42,915 nucleotides of DNA from a virus (IMGVR_UViG_2579779116_000016:1-42915), one strand, 5' to 3'. Positions 1,169 to 33,712 are shown, counted from the first letter of the stretch. The notes: a model not told the origin generated them from the letters alone. A program made the numbers and translations.

Positions 1169-1618
1169 CTATCGAATGACACAAAGCCTTGAAATCCAGT
1201 GCAAAGCTTTTGGTACCTTGGTTTTGTCTAACGTCAAAGGGCAATCATCAAACTCACCTGTACGCGCATCGTTGATGATGTAGGTGATCACGCCAAACAC
1301 TGGCCGTGATGTATCCGACCCATCGTCTTTCAGCGGTAATGGCTCTCTTCTCCCATTTTCAGGGTTTTCCAGATACGGCTGCGGATGTGTCCTGTAGCGC
1401 ATAATCCTGAACTCACCATCAATAGCGCACACCAATAGAGAACCGTCTTTCGGTGTCAGCGACGAGTCGACGATAAGCATTGCACCTTTCATGATGCCAG
1501 CGCGCAGGTATGTAGAGCCCGCTATCATCATGTACGTAGCCGCCGGATGCGCGATTAGACGCTTGTCGAGCGATATGCGCTCCTCTACGTAATCTTGTGC
1601 TGGACTCGGGAATCCCAT
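1169..1618 (-). CDS. UmuD'-like protein (S24 peptidase/LexA C-terminal fold) beginning at the position of the UmuD' N-terminus; catalytic Ser/Lys apparently substituted
   Basis: 149-aa ORF with ATG and GGAGG RBS; N-terminus GFPSPAQDYVEERI...HPAATY...LIVDS...DGEF...VFGV aligns with UmuD from its Cys24-Gly25 cleavage site onward; positions of UmuD Ser60 and Lys97 appear to be Thr and Met/Arg by eye alignment; LexA box immediately upstream. Confidence 0.6.
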   Translation of the reverse strand: MGFPSPAQDYVEERISLDKRLIAHPAATYMMIAGSTYLRAGIMKGAMLIVDSSLTPKDGSLLVCAIDGEFRIMRYRTHPQPYLENPENGRREPLPLKDDGSDTSRPVFGVITYIINDARTGEFDDCPLTLDKTKVPKALHWISRLCVIR

Positions 1619-1743: not shown

Positions 1744-2406
1744 ATGAAAATTAGCAAGGGTTTGTTGGTGGCTGTGTTATGCGTTGTTGGATTGGCGTTA
1801 ACTTTCTTTATTAGAAGGGAGTATTTATCTAGCGAGAAACAAAACAAAATAAACAACTTCCAATCAGTGATGATGGACTTCAAAGACATGAACCTTGACC
1901 AGGCTGATGGTGACTATATTGTTTTTGGTGACTCTTTGATTCAGGGGATGAGCCATTATATTCTTGGCGTTAAATACGTCAACATGGGTGTTGGTGGGTA
2001 TACAGCATCGCAAATCACACAGTTAATTACATCTTCAAGCTTAGAGAAATATAAGAAAGTGCTCATTGAAGGTGGTGTTAATGATGCTCTTAGTCAATTA
2101 ACAGCAGAGCAGATAGGAAGGAAGATGAATGAAGCAATGGACGCAGCCCATGGAAAGGAGATCGTTCTTATTCAGATTCTACCATTGCTTGAATCTGCCA
2201 GGAAAGATTTCAAGAGAGTAAATGATAAAATACGTACCATCAATGCAATAACATCAAAACATTGCAAATCTATGCCTAAATGCTCTGTTGTTGATGTTCC
2301 AGAAGACTTTTTTAATGCTCCTAATGATTTTTATATGCCTGATGGAGTTCATCTTAGAAGTTATGGTTACCATGCATGGGCAAATCACATCAAACTTGCA
2401 CTATAG
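1744..2406 (+). CDS. SGNH/GDSL-family hydrolase with N-terminal membrane anchor (cargo gene in the lysogenic-conversion slot between int and tailspike)
   Basis: 220-aa ORF, AT-rich; N-terminal hydrophobic segment LLVAVLCVVGLALTFFI; GDSL block IVFGDSLIQG about 20 residues after the anchor; AAGGAA RBS. Confidence 0.7.
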   Translation: MKISKGLLVAVLCVVGLALTFFIRREYLSSEKQNKINNFQSVMMDFKDMNLDQADGDYIVFGDSLIQGMSHYILGVKYVNMGVGGYTASQITQLITSSSLEKYKKVLIEGGVNDALSQLTAEQIGRKMNEAMDAAHGKEIVLIQILPLLESARKDFKRVNDKIRTINAITSKHCKSMPKCSVVDVPEDFFNAPNDFYMPDGVHLRSYGYHAWANHIKLAL

Positions 2407-2433: not shown

Positions 2434-4650
2434 TTATTGTATGTTTGTTATCTCTCCTGATACCATTGCTTTTATTGTCTGCCCGCCAGCTGGCTCTCCT
2501 TTGAGTACGAATCCCACCCTGCTAGTGTTTGAACCAAAAAGAAGATCTGCCCCTTTAGTTTGGTCGTAGAAAGTGTATGCATTGACGGTCCTCACCACTT
2601 GATCTGATGTTGTCACCCCAATTAATGATGTTTGACCATCCCTCTTAAGAAGTCCAGATAGTCCTGTAGATCTGCGCAAAGCGGCTGATATAGATATTGC
2701 GTAACCATCATATCCTGAAGGGGTTGATAGTTGAGCAAATCTTAGGAATTCAATACTTTGACCAGCTGCAGCAGTTGCATAGAGTCCATTGAAAATGAAT
2801 TTAGTAAATGATTGTCCACTTACGGTGGTGTCATAGCCTCTCTCGCAGGATAACGATTTAAACGCATATGTTGCATTTAGGAGTATTGTATTTTGTGATC
2901 TGGTAAGATTGTTTATCTTCATTGAAGGGAATTTCGACATATCTAGAATTCCATTTATCGATCCATTTCTGTCTGCTATGTCTATCTTTGTTTGTGTGTC
3001 TGTGTAATTGTTCTCAATGGTAAAAGATGAGAAAACACTAGGGTTGTCAATTTGATGGAATGTTTGACCAAAGTAATTACCGGAAATTGTGAGAGATTCT
3101 GGCTGGTTGTAGATGTATAGCTTGCTCTTTTCTACGTACATCCCAGTTACGCTTACGCCCTTGCAGTTTCCTATCTGTATTTCTCCGGACTCTACAGTGG
3201 AGTTGGTCAGGCTGATTCCCCATGTGTCAACGTAGACATCCTTCCCTGACTCGTGAGCATAGATAAGAGCGCTATCAAGTGTTAGCGTGTTTCCTGATAT
3301 TCCTGTTATTAACTTCGCATCAAGTCCCGCGTTTCCCTGAATCTCTATTATGTCCCACTTTAAAAAACCAGAAGCGCTTGCAACTGTTATCGAGTTGGCA
3401 CCTGCGGCAACATCTCTGGAAAGCGTCGTCTTTGGTGCATTGATGTTTATCGCTGCGGATCCAGATTGTCCGCTAGCTTGCAGGTAGCATCCCCCATGGA
3501 GTTTCACGGAGTTACCCCTCACTCTTACACCATTGAGGGTTCTTACTGAGCCGTTGATGGTTCCTGCAGTTTTCCCTGTGAACTCACCAACGATGCAGCA
3601 GATATCGACATCTGAAGATCGATGATTTACTGACTTGAAATCCCAGTGTCCATAAAACGCGTTAAGTACAACCCTGTCAGCGGCTAATGCCCCACGGGTT
3701 GAGACGCCGCCATCAATTGTAAATCCATCAACAATCTGGTCATGGTGAAGGCGGTCTCTCGATCTATCTCTTGGGTCAATGATTATATGGTGCATTGAGA
3801 TATCAGAAGATGTTGAGTTGAGGACTGTGCCGTCCTGACCAGCTCCAGACCACCTAAATCCTCTCTTGTCTACATCGAGCGTGAAACCTCCTATGCTGTA
3901 AACTCCGGCAGGGAAAGAAAGGCTCCTCATGTTTGCCTGCGCACGAGCAACACGGTTCCCCTCATCAACAGCTGCGACGTTTTCTACATCAGTGCCGCCA
4001 AACTCGAATGACGCATAGTTCATGTCAGGGAAACATACCAGATTGGCGTATTTACCTGCGGGCAACGTCAGGCTAAAAGTATTCAGATCCTGATTGGAGG
4101 AAATAACCCATTCTGATACGTTTTTTACTCCTTTCCCGTTCACGTACGTTCTGACGTGCATTCCATCTGGTACGCCACTAAAGTCTGTTTCCAGTAACTG
4201 TGTTACAGTTTCTATAGTGTAAATACGTCGAGACAAGGCGTTAGCAACGGTAGTGTCTAATGGGTCACCAACAAGAATTGATCCTGTACTCTCTCCGAGT
4301 CTTTGCTCAAGGCGATCAGGGTCATACTTCAGCACATTAGGAAAATAGAACTGCTGTGCACCATACGCATCATAAACAGCCATAGAATGGCCTTGCACAG
4401 TTACGAATTTGGCAATCTGTCCGTTATATACAGGATATCCAGCAGCGTTAATAATAATTGGTTGCGAAACAGGAACGTGAGAACCGTCTTCGTTCTCCAC
4501 ATAAACCTGAATCTGGTTTTCAGGATTTACAGGGTCAGTGTCAATTTTTCCGATATAAATTTTACCATTGGCTACGGCTTTAAAAGAACGCGCCATAGTG
4601 AAGAGTTGCGAAGGCATCGATACGATCACATTGGCTGTAATGTCTGTCAT
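2434..4650 (-). CDS. Tailspike protein: P22-type N-terminal head-binding domain fused to a distinct receptor-binding beta-helix domain
   Basis: 738-aa ORF; first ~110 residues ([11 protein letters not shown]...[33 protein letters not shown]...[12 protein letters not shown]...VLKYDPD) closely resemble the P22 gp9 head-binding domain; remainder is Gly/Ser/Asn-rich repeat typical of beta-helix tailspikes. Confidence 0.9.
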
Positions 4651-4817: not shown

Positions 4818-4841
4818 TAAAAAAACCCAGCCGAAGCTGGG
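4818..4841 (-). terminator. Intrinsic terminator downstream of ant
   Basis: On minus strand CCCAGC-UUCG-GCUGGG followed by a U-run (forward strand A-run 4818-4825 then hairpin 4826-4841). Confidence 0.55.
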
Positions 4842-4860
4842 TCGTTGCGTTGGTTATCTG

Positions 4861-5796
4861 TCAGTAATTATGTACTGAAGGAGGTAATTCTTTATTCTTA
4901 AGTCTCATCCATGCGGAAAGATTCGTTGGTCCGTCTGGCTCATTAATATCAACATCTCGTGTGTGATTGATTAAAACGTCTCTCGCCATTCCGATAACAT
5001 ACGAGAACTCATGACCGTAGTCGTAGCATCTGCCTGAATAGTTCGATTGAATTTGTTTTAGCGCCGGATACAGTTCGCGGAATAATGCCTGTGAGCGGTT
5101 GGCATAATCCCATAACCATACAAGGCTGTTTGCTTCTTTTGCAGAAAGCTCGTTTGCTTTCTTCTCTTGTTTGCCGATTAACTCGCCTTCAAGCGGAACG
5201 CGAGCTGCAAGTGACAGAGCTTCGGTAAACTGCTCATCGCTGATTTCTTTGTATGAACACCCAAAATGAGATTTCAGTGACGACCACATGGTAATCATTG
5301 CCTTCGCCTGTTTTTCTTTTGGCAGAGACTGACCGCGACTCATGACGAGTTGTTTAATGGCTTCCTGCTGTTCAGTGGTGATTTTACCCGGCAACGCCTT
5401 TTTAGCTTTGCGTGGGTTAACTACATGGCCTTTAGTCCAGTAGTCATGCAGCACGCTAAAGCATTCCTCCTGGTACTGAATCAGTTTATCACGGATGTCA
5501 GCACGAACTTTCTCAGGGTTGATGCTGAACAGCCATCCATTTAACTTCTTCAAAGGAAGGCAGAGTAGCTTACGAAGCTTCCCATCAGCGGCAACCATGT
5601 TCATATGAACACAGTTGAATTTGCTAATCTGCTTCATGAGTTTTGTTTGCTGCGTTGACCAGCTCATTCCAAGGTTTTCAACGATTGGCTTCATCGCAAC
5701 GTATGCAACTCCGGCAGCCATGGCGGTGATAATTTGCTGACCGTTGAATGGTACGTAAGAGGTGTTCACTGCTTCTAAAATTGCTATACTATTCAT
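4861..5796 (-). CDS. ant: Antirepressor Ant (P22 immI type)
   Basis: ORF track gives 4861..5862 from a TTG; ATG at 5796 with GGAGA RBS gives [21 protein letters not shown]..., matching my recollection of the P22 Ant N-terminus; sits downstream of arc as in P22. Confidence 0.85.
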
Positions 5797-5864
5797 GTTG
5801 GTTTTTCTCCACGGATTTACTGACAACCGAAGCCCTGACTGTTCCCGCAGTTGGGGCTTCAACT

Positions 5865-6026
5865 TTACGCGCCAATGCGCCCTTCCCTCTTAAAGCTTTC
5901 CATTACTCTCTGATAAATCTCAGAGTTAACAGACCGACCATTCTCTTCCGCCACCTTGCGTACCAAATCTAATACTTCTTTAGGCCACCGCAAATTGAAC
6001 TGCGGCATCTTGCTCATTCCTTTCAT
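5865..6026 (-). CDS. arc: Arc repressor (ribbon-helix-helix)
   Basis: 53-aa product [53 protein letters not shown], essentially P22 Arc; the track ORF is an upstream in-frame extension. Confidence 0.95.
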
Positions 6027-6040
6027 ATTCACCTCACAAT

Positions 6041-6061
6041 ATAGGTCCACCGTGGACCTAT
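6041..6061. promoter_or_regulatory. Mnt operator (Omnt)-like perfect palindrome in the arc/mnt divergent promoter region
   Basis: ATAGGTCCACCGTGGACCTAT is a perfect odd-centred palindrome between arc and mnt. Confidence 0.6.
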
Positions 6062-6068
6062 TGAGAAT

Positions 6069-6089
6069 ATAGTAGAGTGCTTCTATCAT
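6069..6089. promoter_or_regulatory. Arc operator (Oarc)-like partially symmetric site
   Basis: ATAGTAGAGTGCTTCTATCAT between Omnt and mnt; resembles the P22 arc operator by recollection. Confidence 0.5.
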
Positions 6090-6116
6090 GTCAATACACT
6101 AACTTGGAGTGATGGC

Positions 6117-6368
6117 ATGGCTAGAGATGATCCGCACTTTAACTTCCGTATGCCTATGGAAGTAAGGGAGAAATTAAAATTCAGGGCGGAGGCGAATGGG
6201 AGATCAATGAACTCCGAGTTGTTACAAATCGTCCAAGATGCTCTATCAAAACCATCGCCTGTGACTGGATATCGTGACGATGCAGAACGACTCGCTGATG
6301 AGCAGTCAGATCTTGTTAAGAAGATGGTGTTTGATACGCTGAAGGATTTGTACAAAAAAACCACCTGA
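6117..6368 (+). CDS. mnt: Mnt repressor (maintenance of lysogeny, ribbon-helix-helix)
   Basis: 83-aa product MARDDPHFNFRMPMEVREKLKFRAEANGRSMNSELLQIVQDAL..., essentially P22 Mnt. Confidence 0.95.
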   Translation: MARDDPHFNFRMPMEVREKLKFRAEANGRSMNSELLQIVQDALSKPSPVTGYRDDAERLADEQSDLVKKMVFDTLKDLYKKTT

Positions 6369-6467
6369 CGGTGAGTTAATTTTTGCATTTACCTGGGCCA
6401 TATTGACTAATTATAAAATGAGATCAATATTTAATCGCCCAATAACTGGTGTATGTTGAGGTATATC

Positions 6468-6647
6468 ATGGCGAAAAAACCAGGTGAAAACACAGGAAAA
6501 AACGGCGGAATATACCAAGAAGTTGGCCCACGCGGCGGTAAGAAAGACAATTTTGCCACCGTCAAGGACAACGAAAGGCTTCCACCAACAACAAAGCCAG
6601 GTCATGGCTGGGTATTGGATAAGCGAACTCCAGACAGCAAAAAGTAA
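6468..6647 (+). CDS. Small basic Gly/Lys-rich protein (59 aa), immI-adjacent, function unknown
   Basis: ATG at 6468 inside track ORF 6453..6647; product MAKKPGENTGKNGGIYQEVGPRGGKK...PPTTKPGHGWVLDKRTPDSKK; P22 has a 59-codon ORF at this position by recollection. Confidence 0.55.
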   Translation: MAKKPGENTGKNGGIYQEVGPRGGKKDNFATVKDNERLPPTTKPGHGWVLDKRTPDSKK

Positions 6648-6660
6648 TAATCAAGCCGGG

Positions 6661-7026
6661 TCACTCCGGCTTTTTGATATGTCGCTCGCAGAACTCAACA
6701 AGCCTGCTCATTAAGTAGCAGTAAGTCTCGTTGGCTCTTCCTGGTTCAACATCAACACCTACCCTTGAGCAGATATCGAATGCCATGTGAGCGCACTCAT
6801 GGGCAATAGTAGATAGTTTGCCATTGAACACGCCTATCACATGCAAAACACCATTCTCGCTACTCATTGTATGAGACGCTCCGTTGGCGTCCGAGTCATG
6901 CACGTCAACGCCAAGTTTTTGATGCAGGCGTTGCCATTCTGGAAAGTCTCTACAAAACACAATTGTACCGCTCTCAAAGAGCGGTACGAGCATCTTTGGT
7001 ACGTTTCCAATGTTAACTTTTTTCAT
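6661..7026 (-). CDS. Small HExxH zinc-metallopeptidase-like protein (ImmA/IrrE, DUF955-like motif)
   Basis: 121-aa ORF with ATG; motif KLSTIAHECAHMAFD resembles the (F)T(I/L)AHE(L/C)(G/A)H signature of ImmA/IrrE peptidases, with Glu residues 14 and 20 positions after the second His. Confidence 0.5.
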   Translation of the reverse strand: MKKVNIGNVPKMLVPLFESGTIVFCRDFPEWQRLHQKLGVDVHDSDANGASHTMSSENGVLHVIGVFNGKLSTIAHECAHMAFDICSRVGVDVEPGRANETYCYLMSRLVEFCERHIKKPE

Positions 7027-7060
7027 GGTATCCTGCGCAAAACTAAGGAGAGTTAATTAT

Positions 7061-7546
7061 ATGAAAAAATCACTGTTAATTATCCCGCTTCTGCTGGCTG
7101 GGTGCGCAAAAGTAAGCGACTATCAGGCAAGTTGCGAGCAACGCTATCCAAAGCTTAGCGATATGGCTAATTGCCTTGATGCCAGCTTGAAGAACGACTC
7201 TCGCATGGCATCAGCACCAACACCTAAGCTGTATGTCCTTGCTGCGAAGATGCTCGGGCAAGGTGTCGATGAAGGCAAGATAAGTGACACACAGGCAAGA
7301 CTTGAACTTCAGAATCTTTATGTTCAATTACAAAGCCAAGAACAAGCACAACAAATAGCACAAAGCCAAGCATTCCAGCAGGCTTTATTGAATTATCAGG
7401 CTGTAAACACAATGCAAGCGATCGAGCAAAAAGCGCGCCAGCCTGTTATAACTCAACCTTACCCAACACGCGTTGACACATATACAAACTGCAATTCAGG
7501 ATTTGGAAACACGGTAACATGCAACAGTAGCAGTAATATCAGATAG
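7061..7546 (+). CDS. Lipoprotein with Gln-rich coiled-coil region (cargo in the sieA slot); candidate superinfection-exclusion factor
   Basis: ATG at 7061 with AAGGAG RBS; signal peptide and lipobox MKKSLLIIPLLLAGC; Q-rich segment QLQSQEQAQQIAQSQAFQQALLNYQ; C-terminal Cys/Asn/Ser-rich tail. Confidence 0.65.
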   Translation: MKKSLLIIPLLLAGCAKVSDYQASCEQRYPKLSDMANCLDASLKNDSRMASAPTPKLYVLAAKMLGQGVDEGKISDTQARLELQNLYVQLQSQEQAQQIAQSQAFQQALLNYQAVNTMQAIEQKARQPVITQPYPTRVDTYTNCNSGFGNTVTCNSSSNIR

Positions 7547-7559
7547 TTATATCTTATTT

Positions 7560-9407
7560 TTATTGCTGTTCTGCTGTAATTTGGCTTGAAAGTATAGGGC
7601 GTATCGCATTTGCAGCATTATTTAGCGCTCTTTCATAGGCTGGTGTTCCTGCTTTGGTGTTTGCCAAACGTAAGAGAGCATTCCTTGCTGCTTTTGACTC
7701 ATACAAGCGCATCATTGCACCGAAACCAGCCTCAAGCCCCATTGATACGCCAAGAGTCGCAGTTGCGCCAATCGTCCTTATCCTGTTGGCTTGCGATTGC
7801 CCCGTCTGTGTTACCACATTTGCGGTGTCTGACCTTGCTGTTTGCTGTAGAACTTCATGAAGAGCATCAAGCTCTTTCATGTGCTTTCCAGAAAAAATAG
7901 TGTTGTAAATTTCACCGCCTGACTGAGATTTCAGCTTATTAACTTCAGTGATGAACTTGGCTGGAGAGTCACCGGACTTTTCCGCTATTTTGCTGACGTA
8001 AGCCGCACGCATAGCATCTTTTCCTTTATCATCCAATGCGCTCCAGATTCGTTTCACGTCAGATGGTTTTCTGCTTAATACAACGGCATTTATAAGTTCA
8101 GGACTGGCTTCACTACTTGCCTTATTGAGCTTGTTAGCAATGTTTTTATTAAGCACCTTATTATAAACGTTTGCATAATCGGAATTTGCTTTAAGGTATT
8201 TTGCTGCGTCTGAAGCCCCGAGGTTTTTAGCAACTGCGTTACGAAGGTCTTTTGACATTGCATTCTCTACCATATTGGTAGCTGCTTTTGCCTGGTTAGG
8301 GAAGACCATAGCATCTCCCTGAACATTAGATCTAAATGCCGTTCTGTGCTGACGCAGGAGATCAAACGTAACATCCAAATCAGTTGCAGGGTTTGCTAAT
8401 TCTTCACGTAGGTTACGCAAGGATGTAAGCAGGCTTTGATTGGCTGAAGTACCAAGCCGTTCCTGTCTTGCGATCGCTGTATTCAGAGCATTCATGGTAT
8501 TTGTAGTATCAACTGCGGCATTACCCATTTTATTGGTGACGTCATTGATAACAGCGCCAGCAGCATCCTTCCGCCCCCTTAACGTGGTGGTCAGAGATTT
8601 CACCACATCATCAGGGTTGTACTCACCAAAACGGTCAAAATAATTACTTACCAGCTTACTACGCGTTGCATATTGCTCAGCTCGCTTTGAGCCTGTCCCG
8701 AGCAAAGCCCCCTCGGCATCCTGAGTAATGCCACGAGTGAAAGCATTTTTCGGCGTGATAACATCAGATGTCATTGGTGTCACGCCCATCGATTCTGATG
8801 TGGCAATTTTCTTCGCCACTTCTGGCGCAATATCACCTTTTATAGCCGTTATTCCACGCCCTATTCCCTTTGCTGCTGCGGAAAGAACACCCTGAGCGGC
8901 AAGGTTAACTCCGGCATTTTTAGCTGCATTTTGTGCGAAATCGCCTTTCTGATTTGCGGCCTCTGCCAGTGATCCAATAGCCATGCTTCCTGCCGTTCCA
9001 ACGCCTGGAACTAAATACCCGCCAATTGTTTCTCCAACTTGAGCGTAGGGGTCTGTCGGTCTGTCTACTGGACGATAAACATCATCCAAAACTTTTGGCC
9101 CACCAAGCCCCTGACTGATTGCATTAATCAGACTTGCGCCACCCTGCAATACGTCAAATGGTATGTTTACCAGACCACGACCAGCCTGTTCTGCAATTTG
9201 CCCTGCACTTTGACCACCAGTGAGCCAATCGCCAGCTTGTTGCATCAATGATGGGTCTTCCCGTGTTGGTGCATTATTGGCCTGATTAACTGTTTGTTGC
9301 TGAACAGCCTGACCAGCAAAATACTCATCAATGGCGGTGCCAATATCTTCGGTGCTCGTACCATCAGGAAAGGTAAATGTCTTACCGTTTGCAGTTACTT
9401 TCATCAT
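7560..9407 (-). CDS. Ejection (internal virion) protein, P22 gp16 equivalent
   Basis: 615-aa ORF, Ala/Gly/Gln-rich; size and position immediately after the gp20 equivalent match P22 gene 16. Confidence 0.85.
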
Positions 9408-22201: not shown

Positions 22202-22687
22202 TTATTTCAGTTCGTTACCAGGCATTTCTTTTAGCTCTTTCAAATGACAACGATTGAGGCTAAACCACTCCCCGTGCGACCTATAGTTGTAATATTTTTG
22301 GTGCAATTTGGTTTCAAGCTCTCTATCGGCCGGAATCTTTGCAATTAGATTTAGCTTCCCACCACTCATGCGAGATATCTCTGAAATTCGTTTATTAACC
22401 CTGCGACTAAACCCTATTTTTGTTAGCCCACTATCTTCAGCATGCAGAACGTACACATATGATTTTTGCGAAGCACTGGGTGCGACTTTGTTGTAATTAA
22501 TCATGTCAAACATGAAGCCTTGCTTTAGCAAAGTTTCAAAAAAGATAGAATTAACACACCCATTCCTTCTCAGCTCTGCACTTAGCTTGTCAATTTCCTC
22601 TATGATGTCGCCAGACCCCTTTCCACTTATAAGAAAATCTTGGTACATGCGACCAATTCTTGAGGTAATTTCAACAAAGTTATTCAT
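22202..22687 (-). CDS. T5orf172 (GIY-YIG-like) domain protein, cargo gene between lysis and packaging modules
   Basis: 161 aa, AT-rich; C-terminal half YVYVLHAEDSGLTKIGFSRRVNKRISEI...KLNLIAKIPADRELETKLHQKYYNYRSHGEWFSLN matches the YVY-L..KIG.S/T..R...L...E..LH...R..GEWF pattern of the T5orf172/MUG113 domain. Confidence 0.6.
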   Translation of the reverse strand: MNNFVEITSRIGRMYQDFLISGKGSGDIIEEIDKLSAELRRNGCVNSIFFETLLKQGFMFDMINYNKVAPSASQKSYVYVLHAEDSGLTKIGFSRRVNKRISEISRMSGGKLNLIAKIPADRELETKLHQKYYNYRSHGEWFSLNRCHLKELKEMPGNELK

Positions 22688-25908: not shown

Positions 25909-26195
25909 GGCTTAATCTTCCCCTCCTTCAGCAGTATCGCCTGCGTCCTGATCACGCCTTCGAGGTGGTAAAGTCTGGCGTCTTTGTTGTCGAGAATCAT
26001 TGTGCGTCGGTCGATTTCATCGTGACACGCGCTACAAGCCCATGCGCCGATCAGGTCGTCAGGCTTCATTCCAGTTCCGCAAATTCCAGCCATCCGGTAA
26101 TGTGCCAGAACTGTAGTTTCAGGATTACCATTGCATACGCCGTAAATACGTACCTGGCATTCTCTGCCGCGCGCTTCTTTGCGTAGGTTAACCAT
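25905..26195 (-). CDS. DUF1364-family protein (YbcO-like, putative nuclease of the nin region)
   Basis: 96 aa; RGRECQVRI.GVCNGNPET.VLAH.R..G.CGTG.KP.DL....ACSACHDEIDRR resembles DLP12 YbcO. Confidence 0.7.
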   Translation of the reverse strand: MVNLRKEARGRECQVRIYGVCNGNPETTVLAHYRMAGICGTGMKPDDLIGAWACSACHDEIDRRTMILDNKDARLYHLEGVIRTQAILLKEGKIKP

Positions 26196-26917
26196 TAAGC
26201 AGCCTCTCCTGTTACTTTCAGCATTCCGTTATCGAGCAGCTTTCTGGTCAGCCACTGTTGGCCACGTCCGGTGATTTTTGTAGTGAACGATATCTGTATT
26301 CCGTGATTTGTGTTGACCGCTGTTTCTTTCACTGTGAAATAGCCGCGATCCATATATTCCTGCATTGGCACATTGCGCCGGGAGCCTGAAGCAATAAGGA
26401 TTTTGTGATCGCGCATCCACGCAAACAGTTTGTTTGGACCAATACCAACAACCTTTGCAAAGTTTCCAATCAAAATTCCGCTGGCCTCGCCAACGCGATC
26501 GGCAAACTCAACTTTAGGTGCGGCAATTGCGAGCTGGTTTTCCAGCTGCATTTTCTGCTCAGCAAGATCAGCAGCAAGGCGCAACGCTTCTGGTAGCGTT
26601 TTGGGGATATTAACCGCAGATTCTTCAAGCTCTCGCCAGCGGTCAACAAGGCGAGCCGTGAACTCTGGCGACAACTGGGCTACAACGACAATACTGTCTC
26701 GCTTTCCTTGTTCGCCTTCGAATACATACACACAAAAACTTTGATTTAAGCCTAACCCATTGATTCTTCCACAATCCTCAATTTGAGGAAGCCGAATAAC
26801 ACCATTTTTAGCCAGCGTTTCGATGGTACGTTTCACATTGTCATGACGCTTACCAACCAACTCAGCGATTTCAATGCTTGTCATTTTGATGGCATTGCCA
26901 TTTATTAACTCATTCAT
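26195..26917 (-). CDS. Rha/Roi-family phage regulatory protein (DNA-binding N-domain plus antirepressor-like C-domain)
   Basis: 240-aa ORF in the nin region; N-terminal MTSIEIAELVGKRHDNVKRTIETL DNA-binding-like segment; family call from recollection of HK022 Roi-like proteins. Confidence 0.6.
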   Translation of the reverse strand: MNELINGNAIKMTSIEIAELVGKRHDNVKRTIETLAKNGVIRLPQIEDCGRINGLGLNQSFCVYVFEGEQGKRDSIVVVAQLSPEFTARLVDRWRELEESAVNIPKTLPEALRLAADLAEQKMQLENQLAIAAPKVEFADRVGEASGILIGNFAKVVGIGPNKLFAWMRDHKILIASGSRRNVPMQEYMDRGYFTVKETAVNTNHGIQISFTTKITGRGQQWLTRKLLDNGMLKVTGEAA

Positions 26918-31293: not shown

Positions 31294-31587
31294 TCAGAAT
31301 TCCATTTGTATTTGTTCAGAACGCTCGGTTGCCGCCGGGCGTTTTTTATTGGTGAGAATCGAAGCAACTTGTCGTGCCAATCGAGCCATATCGTCGTCAA
31401 CGACGCCCCATTCAAGAACAGCAAGCAGCATTGAGAACTTTGGAATCCAGTCCCTCTTCCACCTGCTGATCTGCGACTTATCAACTCCCACAGCTTCCGC
31501 TGTCTTCTCAGTTCCAAGCATTGCGATTTTGTTAAGCAACGCACTCTCGATTCGTAGAGCCTCGTTGCGTTTGTTTGCACGAACCAT
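31294..31587 (-). CDS. cII: CII transcriptional activator
   Basis: 97 aa MVRANKRNEALRIESALLNKIAMLGTEKTAEAVGVDKSQISRWKRDWIPKF..., lambda CII. Confidence 0.95.
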   Translation of the reverse strand: MVRANKRNEALRIESALLNKIAMLGTEKTAEAVGVDKSQISRWKRDWIPKFSMLLAVLEWGVVDDDMARLARQVASILTNKKRPAATERSEQIQMEF

Positions 31588-31705: not shown

Positions 31706-31915
<210 letters not shown>

Positions 31916-31932
31916 TTAGTACATGCAACTAT

Positions 31933-31996
31933 TATCACCGCTAGAGGTAAAATAGTCAACACGCACGGTGTTAGATATTTATCCCTTGCGGTGATA
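31933..31996. promoter_or_regulatory. Right operator oR1-oR2-oR3 with PR/PRM
   Basis: TATCACCGCTAGAGGTA (31933-31949), CAACACGCACGGTGTTA (31957-31973), TATCCCTTGCGGTGATA (31980-31996); lambda operator half-sites between cro and cI. Confidence 0.85.
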
Positions 31997-32003
31997 GATT
32001 TAA

Positions 32004-32720
<717 letters not shown>

Positions 32721-32806: not shown

Positions 32807-33712
32807 ATGTCGATTAACAGCAATAGCGAATCCCTGCATCAAATGCAGCTTTTCCCTGTAGTAGAGGTTGTTTCTGATGATATTCCTATGGGCGTTCTCA
32901 ATGATGGAACTCCTTACCTAACTCTCTACGGTCTCGCAAAGTTATGCGGCATTGATGACACGCCACTGAGGGTGTTCACATCAAACTGGAACACAGAGAA
33001 AAACAAACCCAGAGGTCAAAAAGTAGCTGCGTATTTAGCTGAGAAAGGGTTTCATAACGTCGAAAAGCTATACACTCGCGTTATAAATAGCTCAAACGTG
33101 GAAACTCATGCTTATCCTGACTATGTTTGCATGGCTATCCTCCGTTACTACGCTCTAGATGCCACCAATTTTGATAGGTCAGTCGCAATAGGTAATTTTG
33201 TTCGCTTGGCTGAGTACACGCTTAAGCGAATGATTTATGAAAAGTCAAATTACAACCCAAATGCTTCAATAGATATCTCATTCGAGAACTATAGAGCAAG
33301 GATTAAACTAAACGATCAGATACCGACAACTCATTTTGCAGTATTCAGAGAGATAGCTGACATTGCCATGAACCTGATCGGAGGAGGATTCCCAATGGAT
33401 GACACCACATCTTTGGATGGAAGTGTTGGAATTCACTGGGGAAAGTATTGGACAGCTAATAGGCTATCTGAGAAATTCGGGGAAAGGGTGCAGTACCAAC
33501 ATCTATTCCCCGAAAATTACAGGCAGTCAGCTGCAAATAAGCATATAACAGCTTGGATTTATCCTATTGAGGCACTTGGCGTGTTCAGAAAATGGCTACA
33601 CGATAATTACGCAATGGAAAAACTGCCAAATTACCTTGGGAACAAAAAGATTAGTAACGCCTCCGAGCTATTAGAGTCGATAAAAAAACCAGCACTCCCA
33701 AATAAGCATTGA
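32807..33712 (+). CDS. Uncharacterised 301-aa protein occupying the rexA/rexB slot downstream of cI; candidate lysogen-expressed exclusion/defence gene
   Basis: AT-rich ORF 87 bp after cI stop, followed by an intrinsic terminator and oL/pL; N-terminal ~120 aa weakly resemble a Bro-N-type domain (DG.PY...LAKLCGI...), C-terminal half unassigned. Confidence 0.7.
   Translation: MSINSNSESLHQMQLFPVVEVVSDDIPMGVLNDGTPYLTLYGLAKLCGIDDTPLRVFTSNWNTEKNKPRGQKVAAYLAEKGFHNVEKLYTRVINSSNVETHAYPDYVCMAILRYYALDATNFDRSVAIGNFVRLAEYTLKRMIYEKSNYNPNASIDISFENYRARIKLNDQIPTTHFAVFREIADIAMNLIGGGFPMDDTTSLDGSVGIHWGKYWTANRLSEKFGERVQYQHLFPENYRQSAANKHITAWIYPIEALGVFRKWLHDNYAMEKLPNYLGNKKISNASELLESIKKPALPNKH

Follow-up and report, generated by a model that had tools for sequence, protein, structure and literature searches.

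Positions 4861-6368 of the 42,915-nt stretch of viral DNA analysed here (the window) hold ant, the sar RNA, arc, the operators Omnt and Oarc, the promoters Pant and Pmnt, and mnt in the arrangement of phage P22, as read from the sequence and its ORFs. The antirepressor gene ant (4861..5796, minus strand; 311 aa) was recognised by Pfam, by PHROG 245 and by alignment with P22 Ant. The mechanically generated ORF list has it start farther upstream, at a TTG (5862); the P22-equivalent ATG lies at 5796. On the 3' side of ant, a terminator scan found an intrinsic terminator with a GC stem and a following T run (4824..4843, minus strand), and P22 has an annotated ant terminator in the same relative position. 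The gene arc (5865..6026, minus strand) immediately precedes ant. It is the first gene of the Pant operon and encodes the 53-aa Arc repressor (Pfam Arc, E=4e-30); 51 of the 53 residues (96%) are identical to P22 Arc. The sar antisense RNA (5797..5864, plus strand) is an additional element, absent from the initial annotation. It matches Rfam RF00262 over the full length (1-68) with 95.6 bits against a gathering score of 43, and is antisense to the stretch between arc and ant and to the ribosome-binding site of ant. Three substitutions separate this copy from the sar of P22. A 90-bp divergent control region lies between arc and mnt (6117..6368, plus strand; Pfam Arc and Repressor_Mnt). The 83-aa Mnt repressor consists of a ribbon-helix-helix N-terminal domain and the Mnt C-terminal (tetramerisation) domain, and is identical to P22 Mnt in 81 of 83 positions (98%). 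It is followed by a homologue of P22 orf59a, a gene of unknown function co-transcribed with mnt (6468..6647, plus strand; BK000583 alignment, PHROG 3202), and by a terminator at 6653-6672 detected by the terminator scan.

Both operators are embedded in the overlapping, divergent promoters, at positions that coincide with the P22 annotation. Pant, which drives arc and ant (6066..6094, minus strand; TTGACA-17-TATATT), scored 11 of 12 matches in the promoter scan, and Pmnt (6061..6089, plus strand; TTGAGA-17-TATCAT) scored 10 of 12. They coincide with the annotated arc/ant and mnt promoters of P22, respectively, and are identical to them in sequence. The Mnt operator Omnt (6041..6061) overlaps the start region of Pant and is a perfect 21-bp palindrome, ATAGGTCCAC-C-GTGGACCTAT, with a 17-bp core at 6043-6059. 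No other perfect 10+1+10 palindrome exists in the 42.9-kb window, where about 0.04 would be expected, and the core occurs once even if three mismatches are allowed (0.05 expected). This core is identical in P22. The edge base 6042, however, is T in the window and C in P22 (alignment A1, column 283), so that the window Omnt is perfect over 21 bp whereas the symmetry of the P22 site is imperfect outside the 17-bp core. The 21-bp Arc operator Oarc (6069..6089) lies between the -35 and -10 elements of Pant and covers the -10 element of Pmnt. It is an exact and unique match to ATGATAGAAGCACTCTACTAT, agrees with the annotated P22 arc operator in 21 of 21 positions, and is found once in the window against 0.01 expected. 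Thus, all elements named in the initial annotation (mnt, arc and ant with Omnt and Oarc) are present, at the positions given there, according to Pfam and the P22 alignment. The palindrome that it described as perfect is indeed so, and the site that it called 'Oarc-like' is the complete P22 operator.

The annotated record BK000583 served as the P22 reference. Window positions 5760-6480, aligned with this record, show a mean column identity of 99% across the 720-bp control region. The module region as a whole finds matches in P22-like Salmonella phages over 88% of 2 kb, in two pieces and with 91.6% identity. The cis elements and regulators of the P22 circuit are present, almost unchanged. The antirepressor itself has diverged further. 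It contains both Pfam domains of this family (P22_AR_N, E=5e-45; P22_AR_C, E=3e-29) and matches PHROG 245, 'anti-repressor Ant', with E=5e-97, and is 68% identical to P22 Ant (311 versus 300 aa). The N-terminal ~125 and the C-terminal ~115 residues are conserved, whereas the central ~70 residues (~125-195) have been replaced. Many E. coli genomes contain this mosaic allele, with 97-99% conservation. A second and unrelated gene of an 'antirepressor' family is located in the nin region (26195-26917, minus strand). Its 240-aa product has Phage_pRha and KilAC (ANT) domains, and it is annotated as 'phage antirepressor KilAC domain-containing protein' in related prophages.

The primary immunity region, immC, is situated at 31.3-32.7 kb of the window. 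It comprises a lambda-type cII (31294..31587, minus strand), whose product is 99% identical to lambda CII in a tblastn comparison; lambda cro (31706..31906, minus strand; Pfam Cro), identical to lambda Cro in 66 of 66 residues; the operators OR1 (31933-31949), OR2 (31957-31973) and OR3 (31980-31996), located by alignment to the annotated lambda operators; and lambda cI (32007..32720, plus strand; Pfam HTH_3 and Peptidase_S24). The 237-aa CI, the presumed target of Ant, shares 234 of 237 residues with lambda CI, the changes being T3A, K70N and K135I. OR1-OR3 are conserved relative to lambda save for one C-to-T exchange at 31941 in OR1 (TATCACCGCTAGAGGTA against TATCACCGCCAGAGGTA). The best DNA match of immC is the wild lambda-immunity phage CL707 (99.1%). 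By organism name, none of the 60 phage records listed as matching immC, which include all those covering at least 80%, appears to be a P22-like phage. Judged by these sequence comparisons, immC is true lambda immunity and not merely a lambda-like repressor region. With 234 of 237 identical residues and an S24 peptidase domain in CI, the prophage should be SOS-inducible without Ant, like P22. The rexA-rexB arrangement of the lambda reference is absent downstream of the window cI. Since rex is not part of immunity specificity, this replacement leaves the assignment to lambda immunity unaffected. The initial annotation had placed an intact P22-type immI region beside lambda cI/cro, and the identities of CI and Cro on the one hand and of Arc and Mnt on the other bear this out.

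The gene immediately downstream of cI (32807-33712, plus strand) encodes a 301-aa BstA-family abortive-infection defence protein (PADLOC BstA, E=7.7e-106; PHROG 6287, 'BstA abortive infection system'). It has no Pfam match, and near-identical RefSeq copies are named 'BstA C-terminal domain-containing protein'. The same cI-bstA cassette occurs in strain ECO3183 (locus L004), where the argW prophage is not P22-like and has genes for a contractile tail (baseplate).

The element that carries both immunity regions is a P22-like prophage of E. coli integrated at argW. Its late genes give nucleotide matches of 94-96% to CUS-3, phiv205-1, Sf101 and Sf6. These matches, together with the Head_binding tailspike, identify a morphogenetic module of the P22 type (that of Lederbergvirus-type temperate podoviruses), which comprises portal, coat, gp4/gp10 and injection proteins besides a tailspike that bears the head-binding domain. 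The control module sits in the late operon between a gene-16-type injection gene and the tailspike gene. A 615-aa ORF at 7560-9407 is the counterpart of what is called 'DNA transfer/injection protein' in related prophages, and the tailspike gene at 2434-4650 is recognised by the Pfam Head_binding domain (P22 head-binding domain). An IntS-type integrase gene marks the start of the window and a host gene for a LacY-family transporter its end, and related prophages are located between argW/intS and that transporter gene. No tRNA or att site was found in the window. A search of 5,426 complete E. coli genomes did not find the whole element (at most 73% of either half covered), and neither did a search of phage records (at most 58%).

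Several accessory genes were observed in this prophage. Between intS and the tailspike gene, a 149-aa Peptidase_S24/UmuD-like ORF (1169-1618, minus strand) starts with MGFPSPAQDYVEERISLD and for this reason looks like a pre-cleaved UmuD' without the N-terminal arm. Just upstream of it lies a perfect LexA (SOS) box, TACTGTATATGCATACAGTA, at 1636-1655. The ORF and the box suggest an accessory gene of the HumD type that is under SOS control and belongs to the prophage as a moron. The gene at 1744-2406 (plus strand) encodes a 220-aa GDSL-lipase/acylhydrolase-family protein with a hydrophobic N-terminus. It occupies the lysogenic-conversion position by the tailspike gene, where related prophages have acyltransferases, and its product may modify O-antigen. 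Between the lysis and packaging genes, a 161-aa protein with a T5orf172/MUG113 (GIY-YIG-like) domain is encoded at 22202-22687 (minus strand), a position with other genes in related prophages.

The distribution of the two immunity regions was assessed from sampled loci and does not represent an exhaustive count, the module and immC being about 25 kb apart. The immI segment is covered to at least 80% in 99 of the 5,426 complete E. coli genomes. For 13 immI-bearing E. coli prophages immC was fetched and the repressors were compared with the window CI. Beside an immI type of 97-98% nucleotide identity, five repressor types occur, with the following relation to the window CI: lambda (n=1, ETEC1749), ~70% identity (n=2), 43% (n=4), 34% (n=4) and 32% (n=2). 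Thus, the Ant allele travels with many repressors. Conversely, eight P22-like argW prophages with lambda immunity were compared, namely the window and seven relatives from E. coli genomes (ETEC1749, 13KWH46, GPEC79-13-647, L3Cip3, MB1159, GPEC874 and 2012C-4431), which share with the window the intS/argW site, P22-like late genes and lambda cII-cro-cI. The mnt-arc-ant module is found in five of the eight: the window, ETEC1749, 13KWH46, GPEC79-13-647 and L3Cip3. Apart from the window, only ETEC1749 was found to combine lambda immunity with this immI allele. Its ant (NZ_CP122712.1, L015 3001-3937) is split by a 1-bp insertion into ORFs of 57 and 245 aa, and this frameshift may be real decay or a sequencing error. 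13KWH46, GPEC79-13-647 and L3Cip3 have a full-length ant, whose product is 79% identical to that of the window, and other Arc/Mnt alleles. Two prophages (MB1159 and GPEC874) have mnt only, and one (2012C-4431) lacks the module. This variability matches the picture drawn in PMC2629481: no other part of the P22-like late operon is as fluid as the 'ant moron', of which sixteen genomes contain ten types. Some ant genes are degraded, and the ant moron may affect tailspike transcription, according to the same paper. The pairing of a P22-type immI with lambda immunity is an ordinary lambdoid mosaic and not unusual.

Two explanations of this distribution were considered and given up or weakened. An adaptation of the Ant allele to lambda CI was rejected, as the same allele (97-98% nucleotide identity) occurs beside four non-lambda repressor types. 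An incompatibility of Ant with lambda immunity, which would lead to loss of ant, is suggested by ETEC1749, MB1159, GPEC874 and 2012C-4431, but is weakened by the full-length ant genes in 13KWH46, GPEC79-13-647 and L3Cip3, which also have lambda immunity. As a separate observation, E. coli strain 41 (NZ_CP076285.1, L002 31800-43400) contains a prophage remnant at the lambda attachment site (ybhC/ybhB). It still has the injection genes, a tailspike gene and an intact immI, whose Ant shares 99% identity with that of the window. Of the early region nothing is left, and any primary repressor has gone with it. Its mnt-arc-ant module is an orphan.

The initial annotation had raised the question of which repressor Ant targets in this prophage, on the premise that P22 Ant acts on P22 C2 and not on lambda CI. 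The structural part of this interpretation stands, whereas the premise of the puzzle does not: as cited in PMC3121763 and PMC3064807, Susskind and Botstein (1975, J Mol Biol 98:413) found that P22 Ant inactivates lambda repressor, and these citing statements name the repressors of L, lambda and 21 as Ant targets besides C2. P22 C2 and the window CI align only over CI residues 104-230, with 47% identity. As the likeness is confined to these residues, the shared C-terminal domain is the simplest common target. Ant is also reported to shield C2 from RecA-dependent cleavage (PMC11016777). From this report and the C2-CI alignment, the likely contact site of Ant on CI would be the conserved C-terminal S24 domain or the hinge. 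The occurrence of the same Ant allele beside five repressor types fits a broad-specificity antirepressor.

Taken together, the window carries a genuine and apparently intact P22-type immI region ('ant moron') in a P22-like prophage with lambda immunity, and this prophage would probably have a two-part immunity consisting of CI and Mnt. The lambda immC allele was presumably acquired by the mosaic exchange that is usual among lambdoid phages. By homology to P22, Mnt expressed from Pmnt in the lysogen would bind Omnt over the start of Pant and keep arc and ant silent. Upon infection, also by homology to P22, Pant would fire briefly until Arc, bound to Oarc inside Pant/Pmnt, shuts off both promoters, and the sar RNA would pair with the ant leader and block ant translation, as its counterpart does in P22. 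Ant would be made upon loss of Mnt, or when a superinfecting phage carries an ant that the resident Mnt fails to silence, and would inactivate the repressor by non-covalent binding. In this prophage the mosaic Ant would act on the resident lambda CI, and the outcome would be a P22-style immunity for a phage with lambda specificity. Some observations count against this explanation. Ant is dispensable for P22 induction and for lytic or lysogenic growth (PMC3121763), a homologous Ant in the Stx phage phi24B failed to relieve immunity (PMC3064807), and in ETEC1749, which combines the same immI allele with lambda immunity, ant is frameshifted. In addition, the replaced central segment and the 68% overall identity to P22 Ant count against reading an activity on CI from the sequence.

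Other explanations differ in whether the module is functional at all and in what Ant would act on. That palindromes and small ORFs merely resemble immI by chance or constitute a dead relic is hardly conceivable. Only the general caveat that a sequence does not by itself demonstrate expression speaks for it, and this explanation is ruled out by the low number of palindromes expected, the complete match of Oarc and the near-identity of the control region to P22; in addition, all ORFs are intact and the Rfam and Pfam scores lie far above threshold. It is also rather improbable that the mosaic Ant has lost its action on lambda-type CI and that the moron persists through regulatory side effects, such as an influence on the lysogenisation frequency or on read-through of the late operon into the tailspike gene. 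The replacement of the central third of Ant would be in line with such a loss, as would the fluidity of the ant moron, its degraded ant genes and its possible effect on tailspike transcription (PMC2629481), the modulation of lysogeny frequency by immI in P22 (PMC11016777), the frameshift in ETEC1749, and the presence of mnt only, or of no module, in two and one lambda-immunity relatives, respectively. However, the ant ORF of the window is full length and both domains score strongly, the allele is conserved to 97-99% in many E. coli genomes, and the two operators, two promoters, sar and the terminators are exactly or almost exactly conserved. The conservation of these control elements argues for continued selection to keep an Ant that is active and potentially harmful under tight control.

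Alternatively, the module may be functional, with Ant acting mainly in trans on heteroimmune resident prophages and any effect on its own CI being incidental. In polylysogens, such an Ant would couple the induction of prophages or hijack it; during infection, it would clear the way. This explanation has a real but clearly lesser chance of being correct. This is the very role that PMC3121763 proposes for P22 Ant, whose broad specificity the paper also points out. Consistently, the allele is found beside five repressor types and thus does not co-vary with the resident repressor. Several lambdoid prophages are common per E. coli genome, and the median genome has two places that match the halves of the window. 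However, a role in trans does not exclude the two-part immunity favoured here, and with lambda CI among the Ant targets reported in the citing statements mentioned above, an action of Ant on its own prophage would be hard to avoid.

The window adds one more case of lambdoid mosaicism, in which a well-understood secondary immunity module moves without being tied to the module of the primary repressor. In practice it is of modest value: the two best-characterised regulatory systems of phage biology, lambda CI/Cro and P22 Mnt/Arc/Ant, are combined in one natural phage, and this pairing could lend itself to work on antirepressor specificity and on cross-talk among E. coli prophages. The cited statements on Ant targets provide an answer for P22 Ant and not for the mosaic allele. 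There is a slim chance that the replaced central segment shifts the repressor range of this Ant relative to that of P22. If so, the prophage would be a natural and genetically tractable system, with lambda CI plus P22 Mnt/Arc control, which would serve to map the features by which an antirepressor of broad spectrum recognises S24 repressors of the LexA family, and to test whether Ant links the induction of lambdoid prophages that share an E. coli host. In the 1970s, 'P22 imm-lambda' hybrids were reportedly constructed in the laboratory; they are not used as evidence here.

The P22 immI region mnt-arc-sar-ant, reportedly described by Sauer and colleagues in 1983, agrees with the window in gene order, in orientation and in its position between injection and tailspike genes. 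P22 and the window also have in common the sar RNA, an orf59a-type gene and the two terminators. At the position of P22 sieA, however, the window has an unrelated predicted lipoprotein and a 121-aa ORF. The latter (6661-7026, minus strand; PHROG 1365) contains an HExxH motif (HECAH), and the former (7058-7546, plus strand; 162 aa, PHROG 6067) has a lipoprotein signal (LLAGC). Either could be a candidate for superinfection exclusion or defence. Host and primary repressor set the window, with E. coli and lambda CI, apart from P22 with C2.

Lambda itself carries rexA-rexB downstream of cI, where the window has the BstA-family gene, and its virion genes are unlike those of the window, which are P22/Sf6-like. 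Wild imm-lambda phages such as CL707, HK97 and HK544 have the lambda cII-cro-OR-cI region in common with the window. A related combination exists in epsilon34, a P22-like phage of Salmonella, where a functional-looking immI lies beside a non-P22 repressor (PMC2629481). This repressor is 58% identical to the window CI and has another N-terminal domain and operator specificity, and hence does not represent lambda immunity. Epsilon34 is nevertheless a precedent for immI in the company of a repressor with a lambda-like C-terminal domain (PMC2629481).
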